A stretch of DNA of 38,999 nt from a virus. Shown piece by piece: positions 1,421 to 28,174 of this stretch (position 1 is the stretch's first letter; the number at the start of each line of letters is the position of its first letter). Position numbers and translations under genes: made by a program. The stretch lies in UHGV virus genome UHGV-1350822. The stretch is one strand, 5' to 3'. The notes below the pieces were generated by a model that worked only from the letters and a program-made list of their open reading frames with translations, ran no database searches and was not told where the DNA came from.

Positions 1421-3723
1421 TGGCTAAAGCATGGAAAGATGTTATCGCCTCTCCACAGTATCAGGCGTTAGCACCAGAACAAAAAGCGCAGGCTCAGGAG
1501 CAATACTTCAATGAAGTCGTGGCACCGCAAGCCGGAGAAAATGCAGAGCAGGCTAAGCAAGCTTTCTATGATGCCTATCCATTGCCTTCAATGCAGACAG
1601 AACAGCAGGAAGTAGGGCAATCTCCTGATACCATTCAGCAAGACAAATCACTTATGCAGCGTGCAGGAGAATGGCTAACAGGTGGGCAAAGCGTAGGTCA
1701 AATTGCCGAGCAGGCGGTAAGAGGATTTGTAAATATTCCTTTTGACGTTCTTCAGGGGGGGGCGAGTCTCATTAATGCCGCATCTCAGAGTTTTGATGGA
1801 CCAAAGATTCTTGATGAAGTATATAGACCAGTTAACCGGCCAACGGATCCGTATGCGCAAGCTGGAGAGTCAATAGGCGGTTATCTTGTTCCTGGAGCAG
1901 GAGTAGCTGGAAACATGGTCATTGGTTCTCTCGCTGACGCGGCGAATCAACGGGGTGATTTTGCCGAAAATGCCGCTATTAATGCCGGACTTAACATTGC
2001 TACGCATGGCCTGATAAATGGCGTTACCCGTGGTGTTCGTGGTGCATCAAATATAATTAGTGGCAATAAAACATCTGCACAGAGAGCGACCACTGCGCCA
2101 ACAGAAACATCACCATTCTCCGGTGATGCCGCTGCAGCAACAAATCCTGCGGTTCATGCCGCAGAGGCAAGAGTAGCACAAGGTGTACCAATGACGCCTG
2201 CGACGAGGAACCCAGAGGAAGTCGTTCGCACAGTAGCAGCACAAAAAAGGCCAAATCTCGCTTCATCGCTTGATGAACTAGATATCAATCCTCAGGCTGA
2301 AGTTCTGGAGTCTGCTGAAAGGCTTAATGTTGATTCATTACTCCCTTCACACTTTTCCGGGAACGAGCAATACAAGGCAGTTGAGCAAGCAATCAAGTCC
2401 CGTGCGGGTTCTGCTCTACAGGTGCAGGAAAATGAAGCAATCAGGCAGCTAGCACAGGGCGCGGGGGAGATAATTGATCGCGTTTCCGGTGCAAAAGATG
2501 CTCTTGGTATGAGCGACAAGTTTATTGATACGGTCAATGGAAGAATGTCTGCGCTGATGAAACGAAGCGACCAGCTTTATCGCAATGTTGAAAAGGCGAT
2601 GCCTGCAGGTGCAAAAATTGATGCACCATCAACAAGGTCAATGCTCAAACAGGTGGCAGAAGATCTTGGCGGGATGAAAAACCTTGACCCTATTGAAAAG
2701 AGAGTCTTTCGGGCAGTTAATCCAGGCAAGAACGGCGCATTAACTTATGCAAATCTCAATAAGCAACGACGACTTGTTGGTGATGCACTTCATAAGAATT
2801 CTGGACCATATAAAGATGCTGATCGCGCTGCTTTATCGAGGCTTTACGGTTCGCTCGCCGATGATCAAAAGGCGGCGCTGTCAGAGACAAATGCATTACG
2901 TGATTTTGAAGTTGCTCAGAGGCTTGTTCAGATGCGAAAAAGCATGGAAGAGCAAATGATTAATCTAACTGGCAGAACGCTGAACGGTGATGTTTCTCGC
3001 AAAGCAACTACAGCACTACAGGCAATGTCGAAAGGCGATGCCAAAGGATTTCGTGAATTGATGCAAAACACGCCGTCCAGGAAGCTAAGAACCGAGCTAC
3101 TGGGAACAGGTCTTCGGGATATGCTTTCGAACGGAAAACGTGGCGCTGATTTTAATCCTGCAGGGTTTGCTGACTGGTATCAAAACATGTTAGCAAACGG
3201 GCAGATGCGCAATCTTGCCCGACATTTACCAAAAGAGACTATGTCAGGTCTGAACGATGTATATAAGGTCGCAAAGGCTATCAAAGATGCAAAATCTTAC
3301 GAGATAACTACAGGAAGACTAAACGAGTTCGTCAAACGGTTTAATCGCGTCACTGCGGCAAATGAATTTGTTGCTAACCATGCCCAACGCATTGGCACTG
3401 CGGTTGGTTCAACTGTGTCAGGACCGTTCAGTGCAGTAGGTGCTGTTGCTGGGTCAGAAATTGGGGCAAAAGTCGCCAGCAAAATCAGGGCGATGGGCGG
3501 CGCTGAATCAATTGAATCTGCAGAAAAGCTAATTAGCTCACCAGAATTCCAGAAAGCAGCAAGGCTGGCAGTAAAACAAGCACCAGAAAGCATCGTTGAT
3601 ACAACTGTAAGACGCTCTTCTGCTTGGCGCTCGTTTTACAACTCACTTCCAGAATCAGATAAGAAAACCATATCAAGGCTAGGCATCATGTACTGGATGA
3701 ACAGTGATGATAACCAGAAGTAA
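1420..3723 (+). CDS. gp16-like DNA ejection protein
   Basis: 767-aa ORF, start overlaps upstream stop (TAATG); synteny with P22 gene 16. Confidence 0.7.
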
Positions 3724-4034: not shown

Positions 4035-4122
4035 CGTAACCTACTGGATAAATACTCAATAGTACCATTTCGGTATGCAATCACATCATGGTTGCATCAT
4101 ATCATTCGTCTGGAGCAATGAA

Positions 4123-6321
4123 ATGTCAGATATCACCGCAAATGTTGTGGTAAGCATGCCTTCGCAACTCTTCACTATGGCGCGTTCTTTTAAAGCAGTT
4201 GCCAATGGTAAAATTTATATCGGTAAAATTGACGCTGACCCCGTAAATTCAGAAAACCAGATTCAGGTTTATATAGAGAACGAAGACGGCTCTCACGTTC
4301 CTGTTTCGCAACCAATAATCATTAACGCTGCCGGATATCCGGTATATAACGGACAGATTGCCAAGTTCGTAACTGTGCAAGGCCATTCCATGGCTGTATA
4401 TGATGCGTATGGTTCGCAGCAGTTCTATTTTCCCAATGTGCTGAAGTATGATCCCGATCAGTTTAGCCAGCGAATGGAGAATGTTCCTGACATCCATACC
4501 TTAATGAGCGAGCCTGCTGGGAATCACACATTAAATGTAATTGGATACGTACCAGGAACCAACTTTGGCGGCGGGCAGTTTTACTGGGATGCCAGCATGC
4601 CTAAATCTCAGCACAACGGTATCACCATATTTAGCCCCACAGTTCCGTGGGATGGTTCGTATGCTGAGCTCGCTGCTTTCCTTGCGGGAACTGGTGAGAG
4701 TGATGGTGGTGGCTCTGGTTGCTGGATCCGTTCGAATTGTGTGCTCGATGGCATACATACAGTTTGGGCTGGACATGATATTAACGGAGTGCATGATTCA
4801 ACGGCATCGGTTAACGCTTGTATATCAAAATTTGGTGGTGTTAGAGCAATACGTTTTAGCGCCGGTGAGATAAAGTTTAATTACCAAATCAGCCAGCAAT
4901 ATCATGACTCTGCAGGTGTTATACGTAAAACAGCAATTGTAATTAATGGTAAAAATAATTTATTTGTTTACGCAGATAATGATGTAAATATAAATACAGA
5001 TGGAAATGGTGAGGCTGAGCGTGTTTGCTTTGGTTTATTCAACTGCAAAAACTTTAAATTTAATGGTATAAAGTTAAACCAGTCATGCACAAATTTTTCA
5101 ACTGGACCTTCAGATACCACGTTTACCCCTCAAGAGAATTGGTTTGGTTTCGCACTTGAGGGGAGTAGTGGATCTATTAATGATATTGACGTATTGGCTG
5201 CAAGAATCTTTGTAATGGCAGATGCTGATGGTGACGGTGCTATACCAAATGAGGATATAACTCTTAGCAATGTAAGGACTGATTTGGTAACAAATTATAC
5301 ATTTTTCACTAAAAATCTTAATGGAATTGCTAAGATGATTGACTGCCAAACGTACAGAACAGGCAGAAAATGGCATACTTTTGGTGAAGATTTTGCGTGC
5401 TCAGCAAGAACAAAATATTTAATTGCAGAAAGAAATCACTTTATAAGCCCTATAAGTATTCAGTCTAGGATTACTCCTTGGGGGGTGACTGGTGGTGCAG
5501 TTATATCGAATAACATCAAAACAGGACAAGGAATATTCGTTGAGATAGGAGGTGAATCTAACGGTGTTGCAGCGCAGAATGTTGTTATTGATAGCAATAT
5601 AAGCATTGGGGATCAGAACGAGGATGGCACATTTTCATCTCATATTCTAATTATCTGGAATGGTAGTAATGACTACTCAACATCATTCAATGGAATTAAA
5701 ATAACAAAAAATACATTTAAAGGCGGTGGTTATGCCATAAATGATTATGCTGAAACTCAGATGTCTGCATATTGTTATGGACTTGTGATTGAAAACAACC
5801 AGTTTGATAGAACTGATGCCGTAAAAGTAACAATGCCCACATGGAGAAAATCTATATACCGAGGGAATAAGTCATATTTTGTTCATGGCAATACAGGTTG
5901 TGAAATTGGTGGTTATGCTCCAATTATTTCTGACAACGACTTTGATTCTACATATCTAGTATCAACTTCGGGTGTGCGTATCGATGAACCAGTTATTGAA
6001 AATAATGAGTTTAGTAACACTTTAAACTCACCAGTAAATCAACTTATTGACTGGCCTAGTTTTGCTGGAATGATATATAGAGGAAACAGATACACGTTTT
6101 CAATTAAGAAATTTAGAGATAACGCAGATATGGTTTCCTGTGGTTGGCGTTTTGCCGATGTGTCTGCTGGAATAGACACTGCTCCTACTACAACATACCC
6201 TGGGAAAGTGCTGATAAATATAGGCGATATGATTCACAATGCAGGTACTCCTGCATCAGGAACAAACTGGGCATGGTATGGTCTTGGAAACAATACATAT
6301 GGTAATCTTAATATAGCGTAG
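4123..6321 (+). CDS. Tailspike: P22-type N-terminal head-binding domain fused to a distinct beta-helix receptor-binding/depolymerase domain
   Basis: [11 protein letters not shown]...[11 protein letters not shown]...[13 protein letters not shown]...LKYDPDQ matches the P22 gp9 N-terminus; remainder is Asn/Gly-rich repeats typical of a right-handed beta-helix; GGAG RBS before ATG 4123 (ORF track start 4075 is probably too early). Confidence 0.85.
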
Positions 6322-6353: not shown

Positions 6354-7508
6354 TTACTTTTTAATGAATCTCCACTCAAAATTCTTAAAACAGATACAGG
6401 AAATAACGCTACACAGAGATGCAATAAAGGCTATCAAAATTGTGTAATTCACAGTAGACATGCTCGATAGGTTATAGAAATTATTTATTGTTCTCATTAC
6501 TATAGCCATGATAGGCAAATGCAGCAAATAAAGACTATAACTTGCCTCACCTAAATAAACTAATGATTTTATTTTAAATATTTTTGGTTTAGTTATAAGT
6601 ACCATTATAAATAGTAATGAAATGCATGCAAATCTGATTCGTCCATAGCTGTCTGCGGAAGAGCAGAAGATAACAAAAATAGCTATGAAAGAAATGAATG
6701 AGAATATCCAATATTTATCATCAATGTTAACATAAGATTTATTGAATATATATGCACCTAAGGCGCCAACTATAAAATATGGCCACAAAACAAATTCTGT
6801 CATAAAGTCTCTTGCCGCAAGTAACATTACTGCGGAAATGGCAAACATACCATATCTCTTGCTTGCGATGGCAATCGATAATAGAGGGAAAATTAAATAA
6901 AACCTCCATTCATACGGTAGAGTCCATATCACCGCATTTAATCCTGATGCGTTAAAAGAGCCAATGAAGATTTCTGTGCCCAAAAATCCAAACCCAAAAA
7001 AATTTAGGAAGCTTGAAAAATCAACAAAGTTAAGCCTTGCTGAACTGCCGGATAATATAATAGCTAAAATTGCCACCAAAAGCGCAGTAAGCATATATAG
7101 AGGAACGAGTCTTTTTATCCGAGCAACATAAAATTTATTCCAGTCAAATGTATTATTTCCTTTTATTAATTTATCAAAGAACAAAAATCCTGTAATGCAA
7201 AAGAAAATCTGTACACCGAAGCTACCCATATTCCCTGTGATGGAGTATTTTGTGAAGTCTATAAATATGGGCTGAACTCCATTGGTAATAATTGTATGAG
7301 CGCCGTGATTAATAAGAACGCTGAACGCAGCTATCCCACGCAATCCGTCTATAAAGAAATACCTGTTACTTGCAAAGTTGATGTGAGAAAAATAGTTATA
7401 TCGTGTCAATAGTGTAATACATAACACAACGGCTAAAAGAGACAAAAAATATAAATAAAGACTTTGCGCCTCAAAGATCATAATGCACACCATGAGATAA
7501 AATTTCAA
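6354..7508 (-). CDS. oac: Acyltransferase-3 family integral membrane protein, likely O-antigen acetyltransferase (lysogenic conversion)
   Basis: About 10 predicted TM helices; N-terminal R...H motif (RGIAAFSVLINH) and FFCITGFLFF motif typical of acyltransferase 3; very AT-rich; sits between tailspike and int as oac does in Sf6. ORF-track start is TTG at 7508; ATG at 7493 is more likely. Confidence 0.8.
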   Translation of the reverse strand: MKFYLMVCIMIFEAQSLYLYFLSLLAVVLCITLLTRYNYFSHINFASNRYFFIDGLRGIAAFSVLINHGAHTIITNGVQPIFIDFTKYSITGNMGSFGVQIFFCITGFLFFDKLIKGNNTFDWNKFYVARIKRLVPLYMLTALLVAILAIILSGSSARLNFVDFSSFLNFFGFGFLGTEIFIGSFNASGLNAVIWTLPYEWRFYLIFPLLSIAIASKRYGMFAISAVMLLAARDFMTEFVLWPYFIVGALGAYIFNKSYVNIDDKYWIFSFISFIAIFVIFCSSADSYGRIRFACISLLFIMVLITKPKIFKIKSLVYLGEASYSLYLLHLPIMAIVMRTINNFYNLSSMSTVNYTILIAFIASLCSVISCICFKNFEWRFIKK

Positions 7509-7726
7509 AGGATTATAGCAGGGCTACCAGCGCAGATCACCAACTCACTGCTCATGATGAGCATTTCTATGATTATAAAATAACTGCAAAAAGTATTACG
7601 TCTAACAGTGAAGCAGATCACAAAGACGATTTATGAACGTTCTGGTGAATTTGATGATTGCCAGGTAATGTGAGGCATGAACGAGGCACACAAAGCTTTG
7701 TACTATCCGATAGTGGTTAAGATCGA

Positions 7727-8884
7727 TCACTCCACCTTTTCATCAATCCAGTCAGCCCACCACTGCATCATTTCTCTGCGCTTATCTAGATACTGAGCAT
7801 GGTTGTAAATCCCGCGCACAGATCCGCCGTTGGCATGTGCAAGTTGCACTTCAATAGCGTCAGCAGGCCATTCGTGCTCGTTCATAATCGTGCTGAATTC
7901 ATGCCTGAATCCGTGACCGCTTTCCAGACCCTCATAGCCGATTTGTTTGATCACAAGCAATACCGCGTTCTCGCAGATTGGCTTTTTCTTATCGTTGCGC
8001 CCGGCAAAAACAAACTCTGATACTGGTTTAGTGATTGAGCTTAGCGTAGTGAGAAGTTCAACCACCTGGTCTGACATCGGGACAACATGAATTTTGCGTC
8101 CCTTCATCACACTGGCGTCGATGGTGATAATCCTGTTTTCAAAATCGACGTTCTTCCATTGCATGGAACGAAGCTCTTTCGTTCTTAGGGCTGTGTAGCG
8201 TAAAACTTTGGTCGCAATGAGCGATACGATACTTCCTGAAAATGTTGCAAGTGCTTTGTTGAATGCCGGGATCTGGTCGGCAGGTAAAAACGGGAAGTTC
8301 TTCTTGCGGTATCCCTTCATGGCGTCAGCAAGGTCAGGTGCCGGGTTATATTTAGCCCTACCAGTGACAATAGCGTAACGAAAAACCTCGCCGCATCTTC
8401 TGCGGGCTTTGTTGGCTCGCTCCATTGCACCGCGATCTTCAAATCTGCGGATTACTTCCAGCAGTTGCATCGGCTCAATATCCTGAATCTCAAGACCGCC
8501 GATGATGGGTAAAATGTCGTCATCAAACATTTTGGCAAGTTCAGTTGCATAGCCTACTGACCAGACTTGCTTCTTGTGCTCGTACCATTCCTTGTAAATC
8601 GCACTAAATGAATTGTTGCTAGACGAAGACTTTTTCGCCTTTACCGGATCGATGCCAACCGAGATGTCTTTCCTCGCAGTCCATGCCTTATCCCTTGCTT
8701 CCTGCAAAGTCATAAGCGGATATTTTCCGACAGTCAGGATTTTCTCCTTACCGTCAATCTTGTAGCGAAGCTGCCATACCTTTTTCCCTGATACAGGGAC
8801 ATAAAGGTACAGGCCATTACCATCGAGTAGGCGGTATGGTTTTTCTTTCGGCTTTGCTGCTTCAATCTGCTTAACGGTGAGCAT
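7727..8884 (-). CDS. int: Tyrosine integrase, P4/IntS-type (DUF4102 arm-binding N-domain plus catalytic domain)
   Basis: MLTVKQIEAAKPKEKPYRLLDGNGLYLYV N-domain; catalytic residues in HGFRHEF...LAH...Y; ORF track extends to GTG 8920 but ATG 8884 matches the usual IntS-type N-terminus. Confidence 0.9.
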   Translation of the reverse strand: MLTVKQIEAAKPKEKPYRLLDGNGLYLYVPVSGKKVWQLRYKIDGKEKILTVGKYPLMTLQEARDKAWTARKDISVGIDPVKAKKSSSSNNSFSAIYKEWYEHKKQVWSVGYATELAKMFDDDILPIIGGLEIQDIEPMQLLEVIRRFEDRGAMERANKARRRCGEVFRYAIVTGRAKYNPAPDLADAMKGYRKKNFPFLPADQIPAFNKALATFSGSIVSLIATKVLRYTALRTKELRSMQWKNVDFENRIITIDASVMKGRKIHVVPMSDQVVELLTTLSSITKPVSEFVFAGRNDKKKPICENAVLLVIKQIGYEGLESGHGFRHEFSTIMNEHEWPADAIEVQLAHANGGSVRGIYNHAQYLDKRREMMQWWADWIDEKVE

Positions 8885-9045
8885 GGGTAAAAATCCGGTG
8901 GGTAAAATTATTTTATCCACTTTTTACCCGTCATGGAGTGCGGCTGTCAACGATCTGACGCGAACCATGACGAACCGTGAATATACGTAAGGCTTGATAT
9001 TCAGGGGATTTTGCGGACTGGTACGGATGGGAGCGAACTGATAAA

Positions 9046-9084
9046 TGGTGTCCCCTGCAGACATCTACTTGACGAGGCAGGGGA
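9046..9084 (-). other. Candidate attP core: 15 nt identical to the 3' end of tRNA-Arg (argW) including CCA, inside an 8-bp inverted repeat
   Basis: 9046-9060 TGGTGTCCCCTGCAG is the reverse complement of CTGCAGGGGACACCA (argW 3' end as I recall it); inverted repeat TCCCCTGC(9051-58)/GCAGGGGA(9077-84); about 161 nt upstream of int ATG. Confidence 0.5.
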
Positions 9085-9133
9085 TTGATTTGAATGGTGT
9101 TTTTTAGATGTGAGAAATATTTTACCCGCTATT

Positions 9134-9334
9134 TTACCCATTGGCGCGGCTTAAGAGCTTATTTTTGAATTCACAATGGTCACGATATAACCATCTTGCT
9201 CGCCCGTGGATAACTTTGGCTTTTGGCAGGTCGCCGGACTTAATCCGGTCGTAGATGAAGGTTTTACCGAAGCCAGTATCAGCCATGATGAATTTCAAAT
9301 CAACCAGTGAATCAGGTTGTAGTTCGTGTTGCAT
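9134..9334 (-). CDS. xis: Excisionase / AlpA-family small DNA-binding protein (TorI-like)
   Basis: 66-aa protein with winged-helix AlpA/Xis character; immediately upstream of int and attP; GGAG RBS. Confidence 0.75.
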   Translation of the reverse strand: MQHELQPDSLVDLKFIMADTGFGKTFIYDRIKSGDLPKAKVIHGRARWLYRDHCEFKNKLLSRANG

Positions 9335-9365
9335 GAGTGCTATCTCCGAATAGGGAATCGAACCT

Positions 9366-9389
9366 GCAAATCAGGCAATAAAAAACCGC
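9366..9389 (-). terminator. Rho-independent terminator (leftward transcript) upstream of xis
   Basis: Stem CCGCC/GGCGG with loop on the minus strand, followed by a TTTTTTATT run. Confidence 0.6.
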
Positions 9390-9442
9390 CATCAGGCGGC
9401 TTGGTGTTCTTTCAGTTCTTCAATTCGAATGTTGGTTACGTC

Positions 9443-9754
9443 TTATTCGATGCGCACTCCTGGTATTTCTCCTTTTGATATTGCTAAGTCATAAATTTGC
9501 GCGGCACTATATCCATCCCGCATCCATGAATCTAAGGCGCGAACAGCCTCGCTACGCTTTTTATCTTCTCTCTCATTTTTGATATCAACGAGGACATCAA
9601 CGCAATTAAGGCAAATGTGGATTTTGTCCTTACATTCGATCATGGCGGCTTTACCATGATTTCCGCCACACAGTGAGCATAAATCTTCAGGGTCTGTCTG
9701 GTATTTCTGTAACGTTAGATGGTTGAATGTTGAACAGGCCATAATCATCTCCAT
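9443..9754 (-). CDS. Hypothetical protein with Cys-x2-C...C-x2-C zinc-ribbon-like motif
   Basis: 103-aa ORF in the leftward operon; CSLCGG...CLNC motif. Confidence 0.5.
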   Translation of the reverse strand: MEMIMACSTFNHLTLQKYQTDPEDLCSLCGGNHGKAAMIECKDKIHICLNCVDVLVDIKNEREDKKRSEAVRALDSWMRDGYSAAQIYDLAISKGEIPGVRIE

Positions 9755-9813
9755 AAAACAAAACTCGCCGTAGCGAGTTCAGATAAAAGAAATCCCCGCG
9801 AGTGCGAGGATTG

Positions 9814-10098
9814 TTATTCATTGCTGATATTCACCTTTATCGCGAACACCTTTACCGGTTTATCACCGAAGTGCGGATGTGTGATTGTTTTGATTTCATA
9901 TCCACCATACGGAACATCAATTCTGCGACTGGAATCGTCGCGCTTCGGATATCCCTTTGTGATAATCAGGCGGTCATACTTCCGGAACATAATTCGCTTT
10001 TTCCAGTAATCATTACACAGGCGATACTCTTCCGTTTTCTCGTATGACTTCATCTGGTCGAAATATTCACCTTTAACGGCAAGTTGCAGGTTAGCCAC
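9814..10098 (-). CDS. Hypothetical early-left (Ea-region) protein
   Basis: AGGAGG RBS then GTG at 10098; the ORF-track ATG at 10227 lies inside the upstream gene, so the shorter form is more likely. Confidence 0.5.
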   Translation of the reverse strand: MANLQLAVKGEYFDQMKSYEKTEEYRLCNDYWKKRIMFRKYDRLIITKGYPKRDDSSRRIDVPYGGYEIKTITHPHFGDKPVKVFAIKVNISNE

Positions 10099-15260: not shown

Positions 15261-15488
15261 TCATAATTCACTCTTCAATACTTCCAACTTACTAATCGCC
15301 GATAGATATCCGCGCTGATAGGGCATCATCATTCCTTCGAGCTTGCCACTTCTTAACTCCTCCCTGAGCAATTGTATTGCTTGATCAATAACCTCTGCCT
15401 TAGCGTCCTTTATGGCTTGCTTGCGGGGCTTTGCTTTCTGCTTTGGCAGATTTCTCAAGCATGATGGAATGTATGTCTGATTCACCAC
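15261..15488 (-). CDS. Hypothetical small basic protein immediately downstream of the N-like gene
   Basis: 75-aa ORF; GTG start directly after the N stop. Confidence 0.4.
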   Translation of the reverse strand: MVNQTYIPSCLRNLPKQKAKPRKQAIKDAKAEVIDQAIQLLREELRSGKLEGMMMPYQRGYLSAISKLEVLKSEL

Positions 15489-15761
15489 TTACCTCGCTGT
15501 CAGTTGTTTTGATTTCCGGTAGCCTGCCGCGTAAATGGCTACGTTTGGCAGGCAAATACTTCCACTGCATTCATCTGCCTTCTTGCAGCGAAGGCTTCCG
15601 AGTGATGCTGCTTTATCTGCTCTGACGCAACCAGAGAGCTTTAGCGCAATTTTTCGTGCCAGTCGCTGCTCTTGCATTGCCTGTTCACGTTGAGCCTGTC
15701 TGCGTGCTCTGCGGCGATTTCTGGCGTTATCGTCAGCCAGATATGTAATGACTACTGTCAT
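15489..15761 (-). CDS. N: N-like transcription antiterminator (P22 gp24 type, arginine-rich motif)
   Basis: N-terminal ARM NARNRRRARRQAQREQ; C-terminus VAIYAAGYRKSKQLTAR resembles P22 gp24 ...ALYAAGHRKSKQITAR; strong GGAGGT RBS. Confidence 0.85.
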   Translation of the reverse strand: MTVVITYLADDNARNRRRARRQAQREQAMQEQRLARKIALKLSGCVRADKAASLGSLRCKKADECSGSICLPNVAIYAAGYRKSKQLTAR

Positions 15762-15868
15762 GTTGACCTCCGATGATTGACTTTGGCGGTGACGCGCCGG
15801 GTGCTTATCTTCCGGTTGCCGTCGTGCAGCTGCACTTCACGCCACCCCAAAGCCAACTACTCTTTGGT

Positions 15869-15909
15869 TCCCGCATTTCGGCGGGACAATCCCATCAATG
15901 TTAAAGAGC
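15869..15909 (-). promoter_or_regulatory. nutL site (boxA GCTCTTTAA and boxB hairpin)
   Basis: boxB hairpin at 15869-15886 is the exact reverse complement of the nutR hairpin at 17565-17582; boxA-like GCTCTTTAA at 15901-15909 on the minus strand. Confidence 0.7.
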
Positions 15910-15948
15910 CTGCCAATCTGTTCCGTTTGGCTTCCAGCGTCCTGCTGA

Positions 15949-16037
15949 TGGCTAAAGAATACTGTAGGTATTTTATTGTGTAAATACCCAAGGTATTTAT
16001 TTTTGATGAAATAATGATAAACAAATGAATACAAAGG
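15949..16037 (-). promoter_or_regulatory. OL/PL region: three dyad operators (AATAC-N5-GTATT) with a candidate PL promoter
   Basis: Operator-like dyads at 15951-15966, 15977-15993 and 16021-16037; minus-strand -35 TTTACA and -10 TATTCT with 17-bp spacing. Confidence 0.6.
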
Positions 16038-16128
16038 ATATTTATTTTTTCGCTGTCTGCTTGTTCAGTGATTTTTATGCGGGATATGTGAAGTGGATCC
16101 CGATAGCTATTGCTGTCGGGATTATGGG

Positions 16129-16497
16129 TTAGTCAGCGAAGGTTAAGACGAGAATTACCTTAATGATGTCTGCTACAACAGACACGGCCATAGATAAACC
16201 AAAGACGATCCAAGCCACAGTGATGTCTTCACTACCATCGTATAGAGTTCCGTAATCACTGGTGTAAGGCGTAAATGTCGCGCCTTGATACAATAGGTAT
16301 AAGCTTGATCCATAGAGGATAAATGCAGATATCCCTTGTATTGCTATGATCACAAGAATCATGAAACGAGCTGATCTATGCGCCCAAGCCTGGCTTATTT
16401 TTTCTGATAGAGATTTCGCAATAAAAGCATGCGCTAAGCCGTAAATTGTCGAGATTGCCAACATCCCAAAAAAGCTTGCTATAGCGGTTCCAACCAT
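16129..16497 (-). CDS. Small integral membrane protein (about 4 TM) co-transcribed downstream of cI; candidate superinfection exclusion or abortive-infection determinant
   Basis: Hydrophobic segments; occupies the rexAB position between cI and PL; AAGGGG RBS before ATG 16497 (ORF track gives TTG at 16518). Confidence 0.55.
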   Translation of the reverse strand: MVGTAIASFFGMLAISTIYGLAHAFIAKSLSEKISQAWAHRSARFMILVIIAIQGISAFILYGSSLYLLYQGATFTPYTSDYGTLYDGSEDITVAWIVFGLSMAVSVVADIIKVILVLTFAD

Positions 16498-16514
16498 AAT
16501 CGCCCCTTGCGTGA

Positions 16515-17231
16515 TCAAACCAGCCTTAGTTTTGTCTCAATTGCAACGCCTATAATCTTGCAGTTTCCATTGATTGGCACGAGAGGCCATGCAGGATTAA
16601 GTCCCTTGAGGTATTTATTTCCGCCGTCGATTATCAGCTTCTTGAATGTTGCTTCGTTAGAGTCAGAAAGTTTTGCTATGACCAAGCTGCCGTTGATCGC
16701 CTCCCTTCCGGTATCGAAAAGAACGAATGTTCCCTCTGGAATGCTTAACCCAACCGGTGCCGTCATTGAATCACCTTCCACTTTAAGCCAAAACGCATTA
16801 CCTTGAATATGCGCGTCAGACTCAAGCCAAACATCTATGTCTTTAATGGTGTATGGTTCGCATGCTTCACACCACGAGCCAGCCTGGATACTGCTTAACA
16901 CCGGATACCTCTTTCCTGCTCTGTATTCCCCTGCATACCTTACGTTGGCATCGCTCTTAAGGCTTTCTGCCTGTTCTGCAACCTTGGCAGCAATTGACTG
17001 GCTAAAATCAGCAATTGAGACTTGCAACAATCGTGCAAAACCAGATGCAACCTCAACGTTTAGCGCGTTTCTGCCATTAAGATAATGCCCTACCGCTCCT
17101 TGGGTGATACCCAGTTCATCAGCGATTGAGTATTGGGTTATTCCCAATTCTTTCTTTTTTGACTCATACAAAGCCTTAAGCCGCTTAGCGTCTTCGAGCT
17201 GTTCTGTCGTCAGTGATTTTTTATTTTCCAT
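16515..17231 (-). CDS. cI: CI-type prophage repressor (HTH_XRE N-domain plus S24 LexA-like autopeptidase C-domain)
   Basis: HTH QYSIADELGITQGAVGHYLNG; Ala-Gly cleavage site (SIQAGSW); Ser/Lys dyad (GDSM...FKKL). Confidence 0.9.
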   Translation of the reverse strand: MENKKSLTTEQLEDAKRLKALYESKKKELGITQYSIADELGITQGAVGHYLNGRNALNVEVASGFARLLQVSIADFSQSIAAKVAEQAESLKSDANVRYAGEYRAGKRYPVLSSIQAGSWCEACEPYTIKDIDVWLESDAHIQGNAFWLKVEGDSMTAPVGLSIPEGTFVLFDTGREAINGSLVIAKLSDSNEATFKKLIIDGGNKYLKGLNPAWPLVPINGNCKIIGVAIETKLRLV

Positions 17232-17266
17232 AGCTTAATTCTAATAGCTAAGGTACTTAAACTAAA

Positions 17267-17309
17267 AATACCCTGAGTATTGATTGCTTTGAATACCTGT
17301 AGTATTCTT
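17267..17309 (+). promoter_or_regulatory. OR/PR region: two dyad operators with a PR promoter
   Basis: AATACCCTGAGTATT (17267-17281) and GAATACCTGTAGTATTC (17291-17307) share the OL consensus; -35 TTGATT (17281-86), 17-bp spacer, -10 TATTCT (17304-09). Confidence 0.6.
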
Positions 17310-17337
17310 TGTTCATGGTTAATAACGGAGAGTGCAT

Positions 17338-17532
17338 ATGATTCGAATGACACTTGCCGATTACGCCAAAATCCATGGACAGGCTAAAGCAGCCAGTGAC
17401 TTTGGTGTAATCCAGTGCGCTATCAGCAAGGCCATTCTGGCAGGCCGTAACATCATGGTTACGGTAAAGCCTGATGGCAGTGTGATTGGAGAGGAAGTTC
17501 GTCCTTTCCCAAGCAACAAGAAAAACAAATAG
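17338..17532 (+). CDS. cro: Cro repressor (lambda Cro fold)
   Basis: [29 protein letters not shown]...V....[15 protein letters not shown] closely resembles lambda Cro; GGAG RBS, ATG at 17338 (ORF track starts at GTG 17332). Confidence 0.9.
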
Positions 17533-17538
17533 TAACAC

Positions 17539-17582
17539 CGCTCTTTAACAGTCATGGTCCTCATTCCCGCCGAAATGCGGGA
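17539..17582 (+). promoter_or_regulatory. nutR site (boxA CGCTCTTTAA and boxB hairpin)
   Basis: boxA 17539-17548; boxB hairpin TCCCGCCGAAATGCGGGA 17565-17582; located between cro and cII. Confidence 0.7.
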
Positions 17583-17640
17583 ATACAACGCGCATAAGTT
17601 GATGCGCATAACTTCTTATTAGTTAAGGAAATACTTACAT

Positions 17641-17919
17641 ATGCAACTTACAAGTACTCGCAAGAAAGCGAATGCAATTACAAGCAACATCCTGAATCGA
17701 ATTGCTGTACGTGGTCAGCGAAAGGTGGCCGACGCATTAGGGATCAATGAATCGCAAATTTCGCGATGGAAAGACAGCTTTATCCCAAAGATGGCCATGC
17801 TTCTGGCTGTACTGGAGTGGGGTGTTGAAGACGAGGAGTTGGCGGAACTGGCTAAGAAAGTAGCCAGAATGCTGACAAAAGAAAAAGCCCCGAAGAACGG
17901 CGAATTCTTCGAGGCCTGA
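17641..17919 (+). CDS. cII: CII transcriptional activator
   Basis: SQISRWK...IPKMAMLLAVLEWGV matches the lambda CII core (SQISRWKRDWIPKFSMLLAVLEWGV). Confidence 0.9.
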   Translation: MQLTSTRKKANAITSNILNRIAVRGQRKVADALGINESQISRWKDSFIPKMAMLLAVLEWGVEDEELAELAKKVARMLTKEKAPKNGEFFEA

Positions 17920-17953
17920 TGTAGAAAGACTGGATCAATCCACAGGAGTAATT

Positions 17954-18115
17954 ATGACAAAACGTCGTAAGAAATACCAGGAAAAAGAAGAGATTCGACA
18001 CCCTGATTCACCTGAGGGATTAGTGGTAGCCGCAGCAAATAACAGGGCGTTCGCAGAGCGCCTTGTTGGTGTTTACAGACTAGCAAAAGCAGGAGTGAAA
18101 CATGGGCGTCGTTAA
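17954..18115 (+). CDS. Small basic hypothetical protein (53 aa)
   Basis: AGGAG RBS 6 nt before ATG 17954; not in the ORF track; lies between cII and the replication gene. Confidence 0.35.
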   Translation: MTKRRKKYQEKEEIRHPDSPEGLVVAAANNRAFAERLVGVYRLAKAGVKHGRR

Positions 18116-25172: not shown

Positions 25173-25272
25173 NNNNNNNNNNNNNNNNNNNNNNNNNNNN
25201 NNNNNNNNNNNNNNNNNNNNNNNNNNNNNNNNNNNNNNNNNNNNNNNNNNNNNNNNNNNNNNNNNNNNNNNN
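25173..25272. other. Assembly gap (100 Ns) flanked by 55-bp duplicated sequence
   Basis: 25118-25172 is identical to 25273-25327; typical scaffold join across a k=55 overlap. Confidence 0.95.
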
Positions 25273-28074: not shown

Positions 28075-28174
28075 NNNNNNNNNNNNNNNNNNNNNNNNNN
28101 NNNNNNNNNNNNNNNNNNNNNNNNNNNNNNNNNNNNNNNNNNNNNNNNNNNNNNNNNNNNNNNNNNNNNNNNNN
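28075..28174. other. Assembly gap (100 Ns) flanked by 55-bp duplicated sequence
   Basis: 28020-28074 is identical to 28175-28229. Confidence 0.95.

Follow-up and report, generated by a model that had tools for sequence, protein, structure and literature searches.

The region spanning the N gene to cII in the virus genome UHGV-1350822 (the window, a whole stretch of 38,999 nucleotides that was analysed here) very probably represents the immunity (early regulatory) module of a P22-like temperate coliphage with a mosaic genome and with the already described HK620 immunity type. Positions 15489-17963 form a gap-free alignment with phage HK620 (AF335538) carrying 19 substitutions in 2475 bp. None of these affects a regulatory site, and 15843-16115 (nutL and OL) and 17037-17620 (OR, cro and nutR) are free of them. 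The operators OL1-2 and OR1-3 are identical to the HK620 sequences and map onto its annotated OL and OR, and the HK620 GenBank record (AF335538 / NC_002730) annotates nutL, nutR, OL1-3, OR1-3, pL, pR, pRE and a cII-binding site at matching coordinates. The order and spacing of the genes and sites (N, nutL, pL, OL, hkaS, cI, OR, cro, nutR and cII) are shared with HK620. Cro and CII are identical to the HK620 proteins, while single substitutions are present in CI (T66A) and HkaS (V20G) and two in N (I57L and E63D). The CI substitution lies outside the recognition helix QGAVGHYLN (residues 44-52), the DNA-recognition residues of CI and Cro are those of HK620, and the two substitutions in N are outside its arginine-rich motif. 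The rest of the window represents a different mosaic: in the first 25 kb, just some 38% is common to HK620, and Sf6 and IME10 are as close as HK620 in this part.

Among 5426 complete E. coli genomes, 146 carry the same cassette, as do at least 15 phage records, and the module is present in HK630, HK140, mEpX2, HZ41, phi296, phi367, Stx2c phages and others. Given its HK620 immunity type, the phage is expected to be homo-immune with HK620, HK630, HK140 and mEpX2, and with many prophages of E. coli. The reference for HK620, as given in the reference list of PMC2629481, is Clark et al. 2001, J Mol Biol 311:657. The site annotations of the HK620 record may themselves be sequence predictions; searches of the accessible literature yielded neither experimental work on the HK620 or mEpX2 operators or boxB nor measurements of CI, Cro or N binding for HK620. 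An earlier sequence-only reading of this DNA had proposed an immunity region comprising nutL, nutR and the OL and OR operators. This functional assignment was right; the cI/cro pair is flanked by the two boxB hairpins, each with its boxA. The coordinates of the genes and sites are given in Table 1.

Table 1. Genes and regulatory sites of the immunity module, in window coordinates (PWM, position-weight matrix score)
Feature	Position	Strand	Remarks
N antiterminator gene, 90 aa	15489..15761	-	Pfam PF25694 N_peptide; phrog_271 anti-termination protein N-like
nutL boxB hairpin	15869..15886	-	Exact copy of nutR boxB; within HK620-annotated nutL
nutL boxA (GCTCTTTAAC)	15900..15909	-	Exact match
pL	15949..15984	-	-35 TTTACA 15984-15979, 17-nt spacer, -10 TATTCT 15961-15956; coincides with HK620-annotated pL
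OL1 (GAATACTGTAGGTATTT)	15957..15973	none	PWM 20.3; HK620-annotated OL1; overlaps pL -10
OL2 (AAATACCCAAGGTATTT)	15982..15998	none	PWM 22.5; HK620-annotated OL2; overlaps pL -35
HK620-record OL3 position	16004..16020	none	PWM -14.3, rank 16,101/38,983; unsupported as operator
Probable OL3 (GAATACAAAGGATATTT)	16027..16043	none	PWM 13.0, rank 5/38,983; 45 bp from OL2
hkaS, small hydrophobic protein	16129..16497	-	HK620-annotated; phrog_6534, unknown function; between cI and OL
cI repressor, 238 aa	16515..17231	-	HTH N-domain (recognition helix QGAVGHYLN); S24 self-cleaving C-domain
Inferred pRM -10 (TAGAAT)	17238..17243	-	Read from sequence; HK620 record without this annotation
OR3 (TAATAGCTAAGGTACTT)	17242..17258	none	PWM 11.2; HK620-annotated OR3
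OR2 (AAATACCCTGAGTATTG)	17266..17282	none	Exact dyad; PWM; HK620-annotated
pR	17280..17315	+	-35 TTGATT 17280-17285, 17-nt spacer, -10 TATTCT 17303-17308; HK620-annotated
OR1 (GAATACCTGTAGTATTC)	17291..17307	none	Exact dyad; PWM; HK620-annotated; overlaps pR -10
cro, 64 aa	17338..17532	+	Lambda-Cro fold family; recognition helix QCAISKAI
nutR boxA (GCTCTTTAAC)	17540..17549	+	Exact match; within HK620-annotated nutR
nutR boxB hairpin	17565..17582	+	Exact copy of nutL boxB; hairpin fold
cII	17641..17919	+	Pfam Phage_CII (PF05269), E = 3.8e-42
CII box TTGC-N6-TTGT (pRE)	17663-17650	-	pRE and cII-binding site annotated in HK620

The dyad AATAC-N5-GTATT occurs exactly at 15958, 15983, 17267 and 17292 and with one mismatch at 16028. 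At one mismatch or fewer, six copies were identified in the window against 0.9 expected, a number reached in none of the 100 shuffles; the sixth (6292; PWM match 6291-6307), in the 3'-terminal part of the tailspike ORF, was rejected as a chance occurrence, and the others cluster solely at OL and OR. A position-weight matrix was built from the four strong sites and used for ranking 38,983 positions of the window, among which the six predicted operators occupy ranks 1-5 and 7. The seventh rank belongs to OR3, a weaker site with two mismatches in the core, and an OR3-like site is present at the same offset in most relatives. Of the five dyads recognised in the sequence-only reading the shared AATAC-N5-GTATT core stands, while OR, for which it had counted two sites and missed OR3, comprises three.

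pL was the sole sigma-70-like site to emerge from a scan of 15700-17750; pR matches 8 of the 12 consensus positions, which is under the threshold of the scan. The putative pRM -10 lies only 6 nt ahead of the cI ATG, thereby implying a leaderless cI mRNA, and the arrangement GTATTAGAAT-N6-8-ATG is repeated in many relatives.

On the third left operator the present analysis and the HK620 record differ. The chances appear to us evenly balanced that the OL3 of the record is misplaced and that the real third left operator is the dyad at 16027-16043. This dyad, which the sequence-only reading had taken as its third OL site, is not the OL3 of the record, but fits the matrix far better, and the spacer containing the stretch 16004-16020 shows no conservation in the relatives. 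A dyad is found at the same -70 offset in a single lineage of prophages with this CI helix, from Tatumella (two loci), Serratia, Kluyvera and Pantoea, in which the flanking spacer has diverged; it carries no mismatch in Kluyvera (L032), one in a Tatumella locus (L013) and two in each of L014, L015 and L065. In a sister lineage, the third dyad is 21 bp from OL2. The spacing between OL2 and 16027-16043 exceeds that between OR2 and OR3 by about two helical turns.

A possible but somewhat less probable alternative, restricted to this third site, is that 16027-16043 is no CI or Cro operator but a part of the cI-hkaS terminator (tIMM) or of a module boundary, with OL consisting of two operators or using 16004-16020. 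The HK620 record itself places OL3 at 16004-16020 and tIMM over 16017-16047, covering the dyad. The A-rich left part of the dyad (AAAAATAAAT-CC) is kept in relatives that have the third dyad elsewhere and lack the right half-site, and its conservation could therefore reflect something besides CI binding; position 7 of the left half-site is A rather than a pyrimidine, and the two mismatches in several of the relatives point in the same direction. However, the RNA fold of the stretch reaches just -2.7 kcal/mol, with 141 of 200 shuffles folding as well, no terminator-like site was detected in it, and neither the terminator scan nor RNA folding revealed a convincing intrinsic terminator at the annotated tIMM. 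The poor score and lack of conservation of 16004-16020, and the exact and one-mismatch copies at the -70 offset in Kluyvera and Tatumella, respectively, also argue for 16027-16043 as the probable third left operator.

The proteins encoded by the module belong to the families expected of a lambda-type switch. CI matches the Pfam families HTH_3 (E = 8.1e-10) and Peptidase_S24 (E = 5.2e-24), and its residues 3-232 align full length to the lambda repressor 3bdn (E = 2.9e-52). SIQAG, EGDSMT and TFKKL of CI are aligned with HVQAG, EGNSMT and TFKKL of lambda, such that the cleavage site and the Ser/Lys dyad are present; the aligned lambda residues are A111-G112, S149 and K192. Cro matches Pfam PF09048 (E = 3.6e-26, 91.3 bits, cut-off 32.7) and the lambda Cro structures (E = 4.7e-19). 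According to the published Cro code (PMC6649833), Gln H1, Ala H3 and Lys H6 specify A +2, A +5 and C +6, and the prediction from the present Cro helix agrees with the half-site G-A-A-T-A-C-C. No Pfam match was found for HkaS, and a scan of the whole window with Rfam gave no family at the gathering threshold.

Comparison with lambda reveals a common design with different DNA recognition. CI is a full-length homologue of its lambda counterpart and Cro is a member of the lambda-Cro family; the 17-bp operators with a central base pair and the operator-promoter overlaps are the same, and the OR spacings (O1-O2 and O2-O3, 24-25 bp here) are counted as shared. Half-site positions 2, 5, 6 and 7 (A, A, C and C) agree with the lambda consensus, whereas positions 3-4 are A-T here and T-C in lambda, and the recognition helices are QGAVGHY against QSGVGAL in CI and QCAISK against QSAINK in Cro. 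Features unlike lambda are the distance of about 1.33 kb between OL and OR, hkaS in the place of rexAB and the 45 bp that separate the candidate OL3 from OL2. The sequence-only reading had noted an operator consensus unlike that of lambda, and AATAC is indeed a half-site different from that of lambda; it had gone on to suggest a distinct immunity specificity, a claim that fails in its own proposed comparison, all the operators being identical to those of HK620. A new, undescribed lambdoid specificity could be argued from the contrast of AATAC with the TATCAC-type operator of lambda and from the CI and Cro recognition helices unlike those of lambda, but is highly improbable given that Cro, every operator and the two nut sites show 100% identity to HK620, in which the sites are annotated, that CI is one residue off and outside the helix, and that the module is shared by the phages and E. 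coli genomes listed above.

The nut sites were correctly recognised in the sequence-only reading as boxB hairpins that are exact reverse complements, each with a boxA ahead of it. The 18-nt boxB TCCCGCCGAAATGCGGGA occurs exactly twice in the window, on opposite strands, and no further match was found in it at up to three mismatches (0.03 expected by chance). It folds into a 6-bp stem with a 6-nt loop (-9.7 kcal/mol, z = -2.9). The boxA 10-mer alone is not significant (five found at one mismatch against 2.5 expected); it is non-random by virtue of its pairing with boxB on the correct strand, the boxA to boxB distance on the transcribed strands being 13 nt in nutL and 15 nt in nutR. An extended nutL fold, in which boxA pairs with AAAGAG downstream of boxB, was rejected, as it is shuffle-like (z = -0.6) and absent at nutR. 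With boxA ahead of a boxB hairpin in each early transcript, downstream of pL and of pR, the arrangement is that of the N-nut systems of lambda, P22 and phage 21. The boxA GCUCUUUAACA matches the rrn/P22-type consensus. The boxB of lambda and P22 has a 5-nt GNRA-like loop, whereas the loop here is CGAAAU, perhaps a GAAA tetraloop with a closing C-U mismatch; the boxA-boxB spacers of lambda are shorter, and the small size of N, just 90 aa, is a further difference from these systems.

The N gene product matches PF25694 with E = 1.1e-15 and 58.4 bits (cut-off 27.9) and carries an N-terminal arginine-rich motif, NARNRRRARRQAQ, at residues 12-24, whose pattern A-x-x-RRR-x-RR resembles residues 3-11 of lambda N. 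The HK620 record describes N as 'similar to H19B and 21 N'. Identity of N and boxB with the experimentally studied H-19B N is not claimed; the latter has a residue 108 and is thus longer than the 90 aa found here, and the papers on H-19B N do not state its nut sequence. The same boxB pair is present in ECP1, N7, CUS-3 and the Stx1a phage LC744178, where it flanks other repressor genes and the AATAC dyads are absent. LC744178, the only one of these in which the coding sequence was checked directly, encodes an identical 90-aa N, and in N7 and CUS-3 the shared DNA does not extend beyond the N-terminal part of N. In mEp213, an HK620-type N gene occurs without the matching boxB, and a second N lies beside the immunity region. 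Taken together, these comparisons indicate that the arginine-rich motif of N and boxB are co-inherited independently of the immunity genes, as a separable module.

Conservation of the operators was examined in 24 prophages in which CI is 43-76% identical and the helix QGAVGHY(L/I/M)N is kept, together with 56 loci with other helices. Exact dyads number 58 in 112 kb of the former and 3 in 248 kb of the latter. All 24 relatives share the layout in which cI and cro diverge from a tripartite operator and a second group of operators lies at pL; measured from the cI start, the dyads are at about -75, -50 and -26, with others further downstream. Of 206 half-sites, 201 have a pyrimidine at position 7, which played no part in site selection, and positions 8-9 vary freely. 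In these diverged prophages the CI helix QGAVGHY(L/I/M)N co-occurs with AATACY half-sites at fixed offsets. A chance origin of the dyads and hairpins as inverted repeats, short dyads being common in AT-rich intergenic phage DNA, has a negligible probability, as no shuffle reached the observed counts and both positions and half-sites are conserved over the 24 prophages.

The HK620 sequence identity, domain families, site positions and their conservation and co-inheritance in relatives are observed directly; from homology with lambda we infer all the binding events and regulatory outcomes that follow. CI dimers would bind the 17-bp dyads nAATACY-N3-RGTATTn, and as OL1 and OL2 overlie the -10 and -35 of pL and OR1 and OR2 overlie pR, bound CI is expected to silence both early operons. 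CI at OR2 would adjoin the weak -35 of pRM, from which a leaderless cI-hkaS transcript would start, and OR3, which overlaps pRM, may together with the third OL site mediate negative autoregulation. Cro would act at the same sites as CI. RecA-stimulated self-cleavage of CI at the Ala-Gly site would lead to prophage induction, and the pL and pR transcripts made after de-repression would carry boxA and the boxB hairpin, on which the arginine-rich N-terminus of N (at boxB) and host Nus factors (at boxA) are likely to render RNA polymerase resistant to termination.

Judged by its sequence, the region is real but already known, the HK620 sites having been annotated in 2001, and its importance beyond correct annotation is small. 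A by-product is that, on sequence evidence, the stretch annotated as OL3 in the HK620 record neither matches the operator motif nor is conserved. The set of 24 prophages, with one CI helix and one half-site AATACY, may be used in studies of repressor-operator co-evolution, and if both spacings of the third left dyad do bind CI, they would provide a natural test of the operator-spacing constraint on OL3-OR3 pairing in the long-range CI loop.

The stretch from N to cII is an immunity region of the lambda type whose two nut sites match each other, as the sequence-only reading had correctly proposed; it belongs to the immunity type of coliphage HK620 (AF335538), which is previously described and widespread. 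A megablast search of 50,697 phage records with positions 15400-18000 as query retrieved HK620, HK630, HK140, mEpX2, HZ41, phi296, phi367, two Stx2c phages and others with at least 80% query cover and 97.5-99.8% identity. Positions 15489-17963 align without gaps to HK620 7373-9847 with 19 substitutions, none of which falls in 15843-16115 (nutL, pL, OL) or in 17037-17620 (first third of cI, OR, cro, nutR). Cro and CII are identical to the HK620 proteins; the changes in the other products are T66A in CI, I57L and E63D in N, and V20G in HkaS. Features annotated in the HK620 record at matching coordinates are nutL, pL, OL1-3, tIMM, OR1-3, pR, nutR, tR1 and pRE. The earlier claim of a distinct immunity specificity, which by its own criterion would fall if the operators proved identical to those of a described type such as HK620, is therefore refuted by the identity of the operators. 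Of 5426 complete E. coli genomes, 146 also carry the OL-to-cro cassette at 95% identity or more.

Features of the region and of the tailspike locus
Feature	Position	Strand	Details
tailspike ORF	4075-6321	plus	
membrane O-acetyltransferase / O-antigen acetylase	6354-7508	minus	384 aa; phrog_3333, phrog_6705
N	15489-15761	minus	90 aa; Pfam N_peptide
nutL boxB	15869-15886	minus	18-mer TCCCGCCGAAATGCGGGA, exact
nutL boxA	15900-15909	minus	GCTCTTTAAC, exact; 13 nt upstream of boxB
pL			-35 TTTACA, -10 TATTCT; overlaps OL2 and OL1
OL1 dyad	from 15958		AATAC-N5-GTATT, exact
OL2 dyad	from 15983		AATAC-N5-GTATT, exact
candidate OL3 dyad	from 16028		AATAC-N5-GTATT, one mismatch
hkaS	16129-16497	minus	122 aa, small, hydrophobic; phrog_6534
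cI	16515-17231	minus	HTH_3 and Peptidase_S24
pRM (inferred)			TAGAAT ending 6 nt ahead of cI ATG; adjoins OR3
OR2 dyad	from 17267		AATAC-N5-GTATT, exact
pR	17280-17308		TTGATT, 17-nt spacer, TATTCT; overlaps OR2 and OR1
OR1 dyad	from 17292		AATAC-N5-GTATT, exact
cro	17338-17532	plus	Pfam Cro
nutR boxA	17540-17549	plus	GCTCTTTAAC, exact; 15 nt upstream of boxB
nutR boxB	17565-17582	plus	18-mer TCCCGCCGAAATGCGGGA, exact
cII	17641-17919	plus	Pfam Phage_CII

The window as a whole is a mosaic of P22-like phages distinct from that of HK620, with IME10, Sf6 and HK620 each covering about 40% of its first 25 kb. Two runs of exactly 100 N (25173-25272 and 28075-28174) mark it as a gapped scaffold and not a finished sequence. 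The O-antigen acetylase gene, convergent with the tailspike ORF, probably serves in lysogenic conversion.

CI aligns over its full length with the lambda repressor (3bdn, E = 2.9e-52), including the QAG, GxSMT and FKKL motifs, and the cro product matches lambda Cro chains (E = 4.7e-19). HkaS has no match in Pfam; its gene takes the place that rexAB has in lambda, shares a transcript with cI and could encode an exclusion function. The overlap of operators and promoters is the same arrangement as in lambda, and the placement of the pRM hexamer implies a leaderless transcript. A stable hairpin without a U-tract (AUCCCGA...UCGGGAU, 16097-16122, minus strand) lies directly past the hkaS stop codon; the 146-nt stretch 15990-16135 has a fold z of -2.96.

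The matched boxA-boxB pairs were confirmed. The 39-kb window holds two exact copies of the boxB 18-mer and no further match at up to three mismatches (chance expectation 0.03); alone, the 18-mer folds into a 6-nt loop on a 6-bp stem (-9.7 kcal/mol, z = -2.9). Both boxA copies lie on the transcribed strand, the same as their boxB; since the 10-mer at one mismatch is not significant alone (5 seen, 2.5 expected), the weight of this evidence is in the pairing with boxB. Lambda and P22 boxB loops are pentaloops, whereas the loop here is CGAAAU, possibly a GAAA tetraloop with a closing C-U mismatch; a literature search found no experimental work on this boxB loop. In the nutL RNA, GCUCUUU of boxA can pair with AAAGAG directly past boxB (15860-15866, minus strand), giving a longer stem around boxB, which folds no better than shuffles and has no counterpart at nutR.

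The N/nut pair also occurs as a separate module. The same boxB occupies both nut positions in ECP1, N7, CUS-3 and the Stx1a phage LC744178, which have unrelated repressors and none of the AATAC dyads. LC744178 encodes the identical 90-aa N, while the DNA that N7 and CUS-3 have in common with the window spans only the N-terminal part of N, a pattern consistent with the arginine-rich motif travelling together with its RNA target. Phage mEp213 (JQ182733) carries two N genes (3090-3362 and 4515-4847), the second being of HK244 type and adjoining its own immunity region; no boxB matching the HK620-type N was found anywhere in that locus, and this N resembles a module remnant left stranded.

Of the five AATAC-N5-GTATT dyads originally proposed, four are exact and one has a single mismatch; a further site, 17242-17258 (TAATAGCTAAGGTACTT), at the OR3 position, had been overlooked. 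At up to one mismatch the pattern was observed 6 times against 0.9 expected, a count reached by no shuffle. A position-weight matrix built from the four exact sites ranked these 1-4 of 38,983 positions, 16027-16043 fifth (score 13.0) and 17242-17258 seventh. The sixth, 6291-6307, lies within the tailspike ORF and was dropped as chance.

The position of OL3 is the sole disagreement with the public annotation. The HK620 record places it at window 16004-16020 (TGATGAAATAATGATAA), which scores -14.3 and ranks 16,101, as against the dyad at 16027-16043. With OL1 as anchor, the OL regions of relatives separate into two groups. In the first, a dyad stands at the offset found in the window (-70, 45 bp from OL2): it is exact in Kluyvera L032, has one mismatch in Tatumella L013 and two in Tatumella L014, Serratia L015 and Pantoea L065; the intervening DNA, where the GenBank OL3 falls, is not conserved among them. 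In the second, a sister group (L012, L016-L018, L024), the third dyad is placed 21 bp from OL2. The tIMM terminator label of HK620 spans 16017-16047, a stretch whose RNA folds at only -2.7 kcal/mol, which does not beat shuffles, with no terminator-like site detected. Two points count against the dyad at 16027-16043: three of the five relatives with the same offset have two mismatches there, and the A-rich left flank AAAAATAAAT is also conserved in relatives that lack the right half-site, so that its conservation may be due in part to something else. On balance, the comparison leans towards 16027-16043 being a genuine weak operator. The A-rich motif AAAAATAAAT[A/T]CC, at 16040-16050 and at the same offset in L008-L032, is conserved upstream of OL in nearly all relatives; it may form a bend, mark a module boundary or bind a protein.

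The lambda half-site, TATCACC, differs from G-A-A-T-A-C-C (lambda numbering) at positions 3-4 only. The second helix residue of CI is Ser in lambda and Gly here, and Cro has Ser H2 and Asn H5 in lambda but Cys H2 and Ser H5 here. The published Cro code (PMC6649833) assigns A +2, A +5 and C +6 to Gln H1, Ala H3 and Lys H6, the residues present in the window Cro, and this prediction fits the half-site.

Relatives supply independent evidence of function. A CI protein scan with one genome per species yielded 80 loci, 24 of which retain the recognition helix Q-G-A-V-G-H-Y-(L/I/M)-N in repressors 43-76% identical to the window CI (Lelliottia, Siccibacter, Enterobacter, Tatumella, Lonsdalea, Serratia, Pantoea, Providencia, Proteus, Yersinia, Pectobacterium, Scandinavium, Kluyvera, Microbulbifer). 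Exact AATAC-N5-GTATT dyads number 58 in the 112 kb of these 24 loci and 3 in the 248 kb of the remaining 56. Within the 24, their offsets relative to the cI start codon are fixed, at about -75 (OR1), -50 (OR2) and -26 (OR3), and two or three more dyads form a downstream cluster that corresponds to OL. The search pattern did not include half-site position 7, yet 201 of 206 half-sites have a pyrimidine there, and positions 8-9 are unconstrained; hence the operator is nAATACY-N3-RGTATTn. Two Microbulbifer prophages (L068, L069; CI 43-45% identical) combine the QGAVGHYLN helix and AATAC dyads with a different HTH protein (VTQGMVSAW), not of the lambda-Cro family, at the cro position. A sub-group with the helix ITKGAVSHWLN (L025, L026, L028, L029, L036) has ATATAC-N5-GTATAT-like dyads at OR and OL, a neighbouring specificity one base off AATAC; such covariation is what a repressor and its operator should show.
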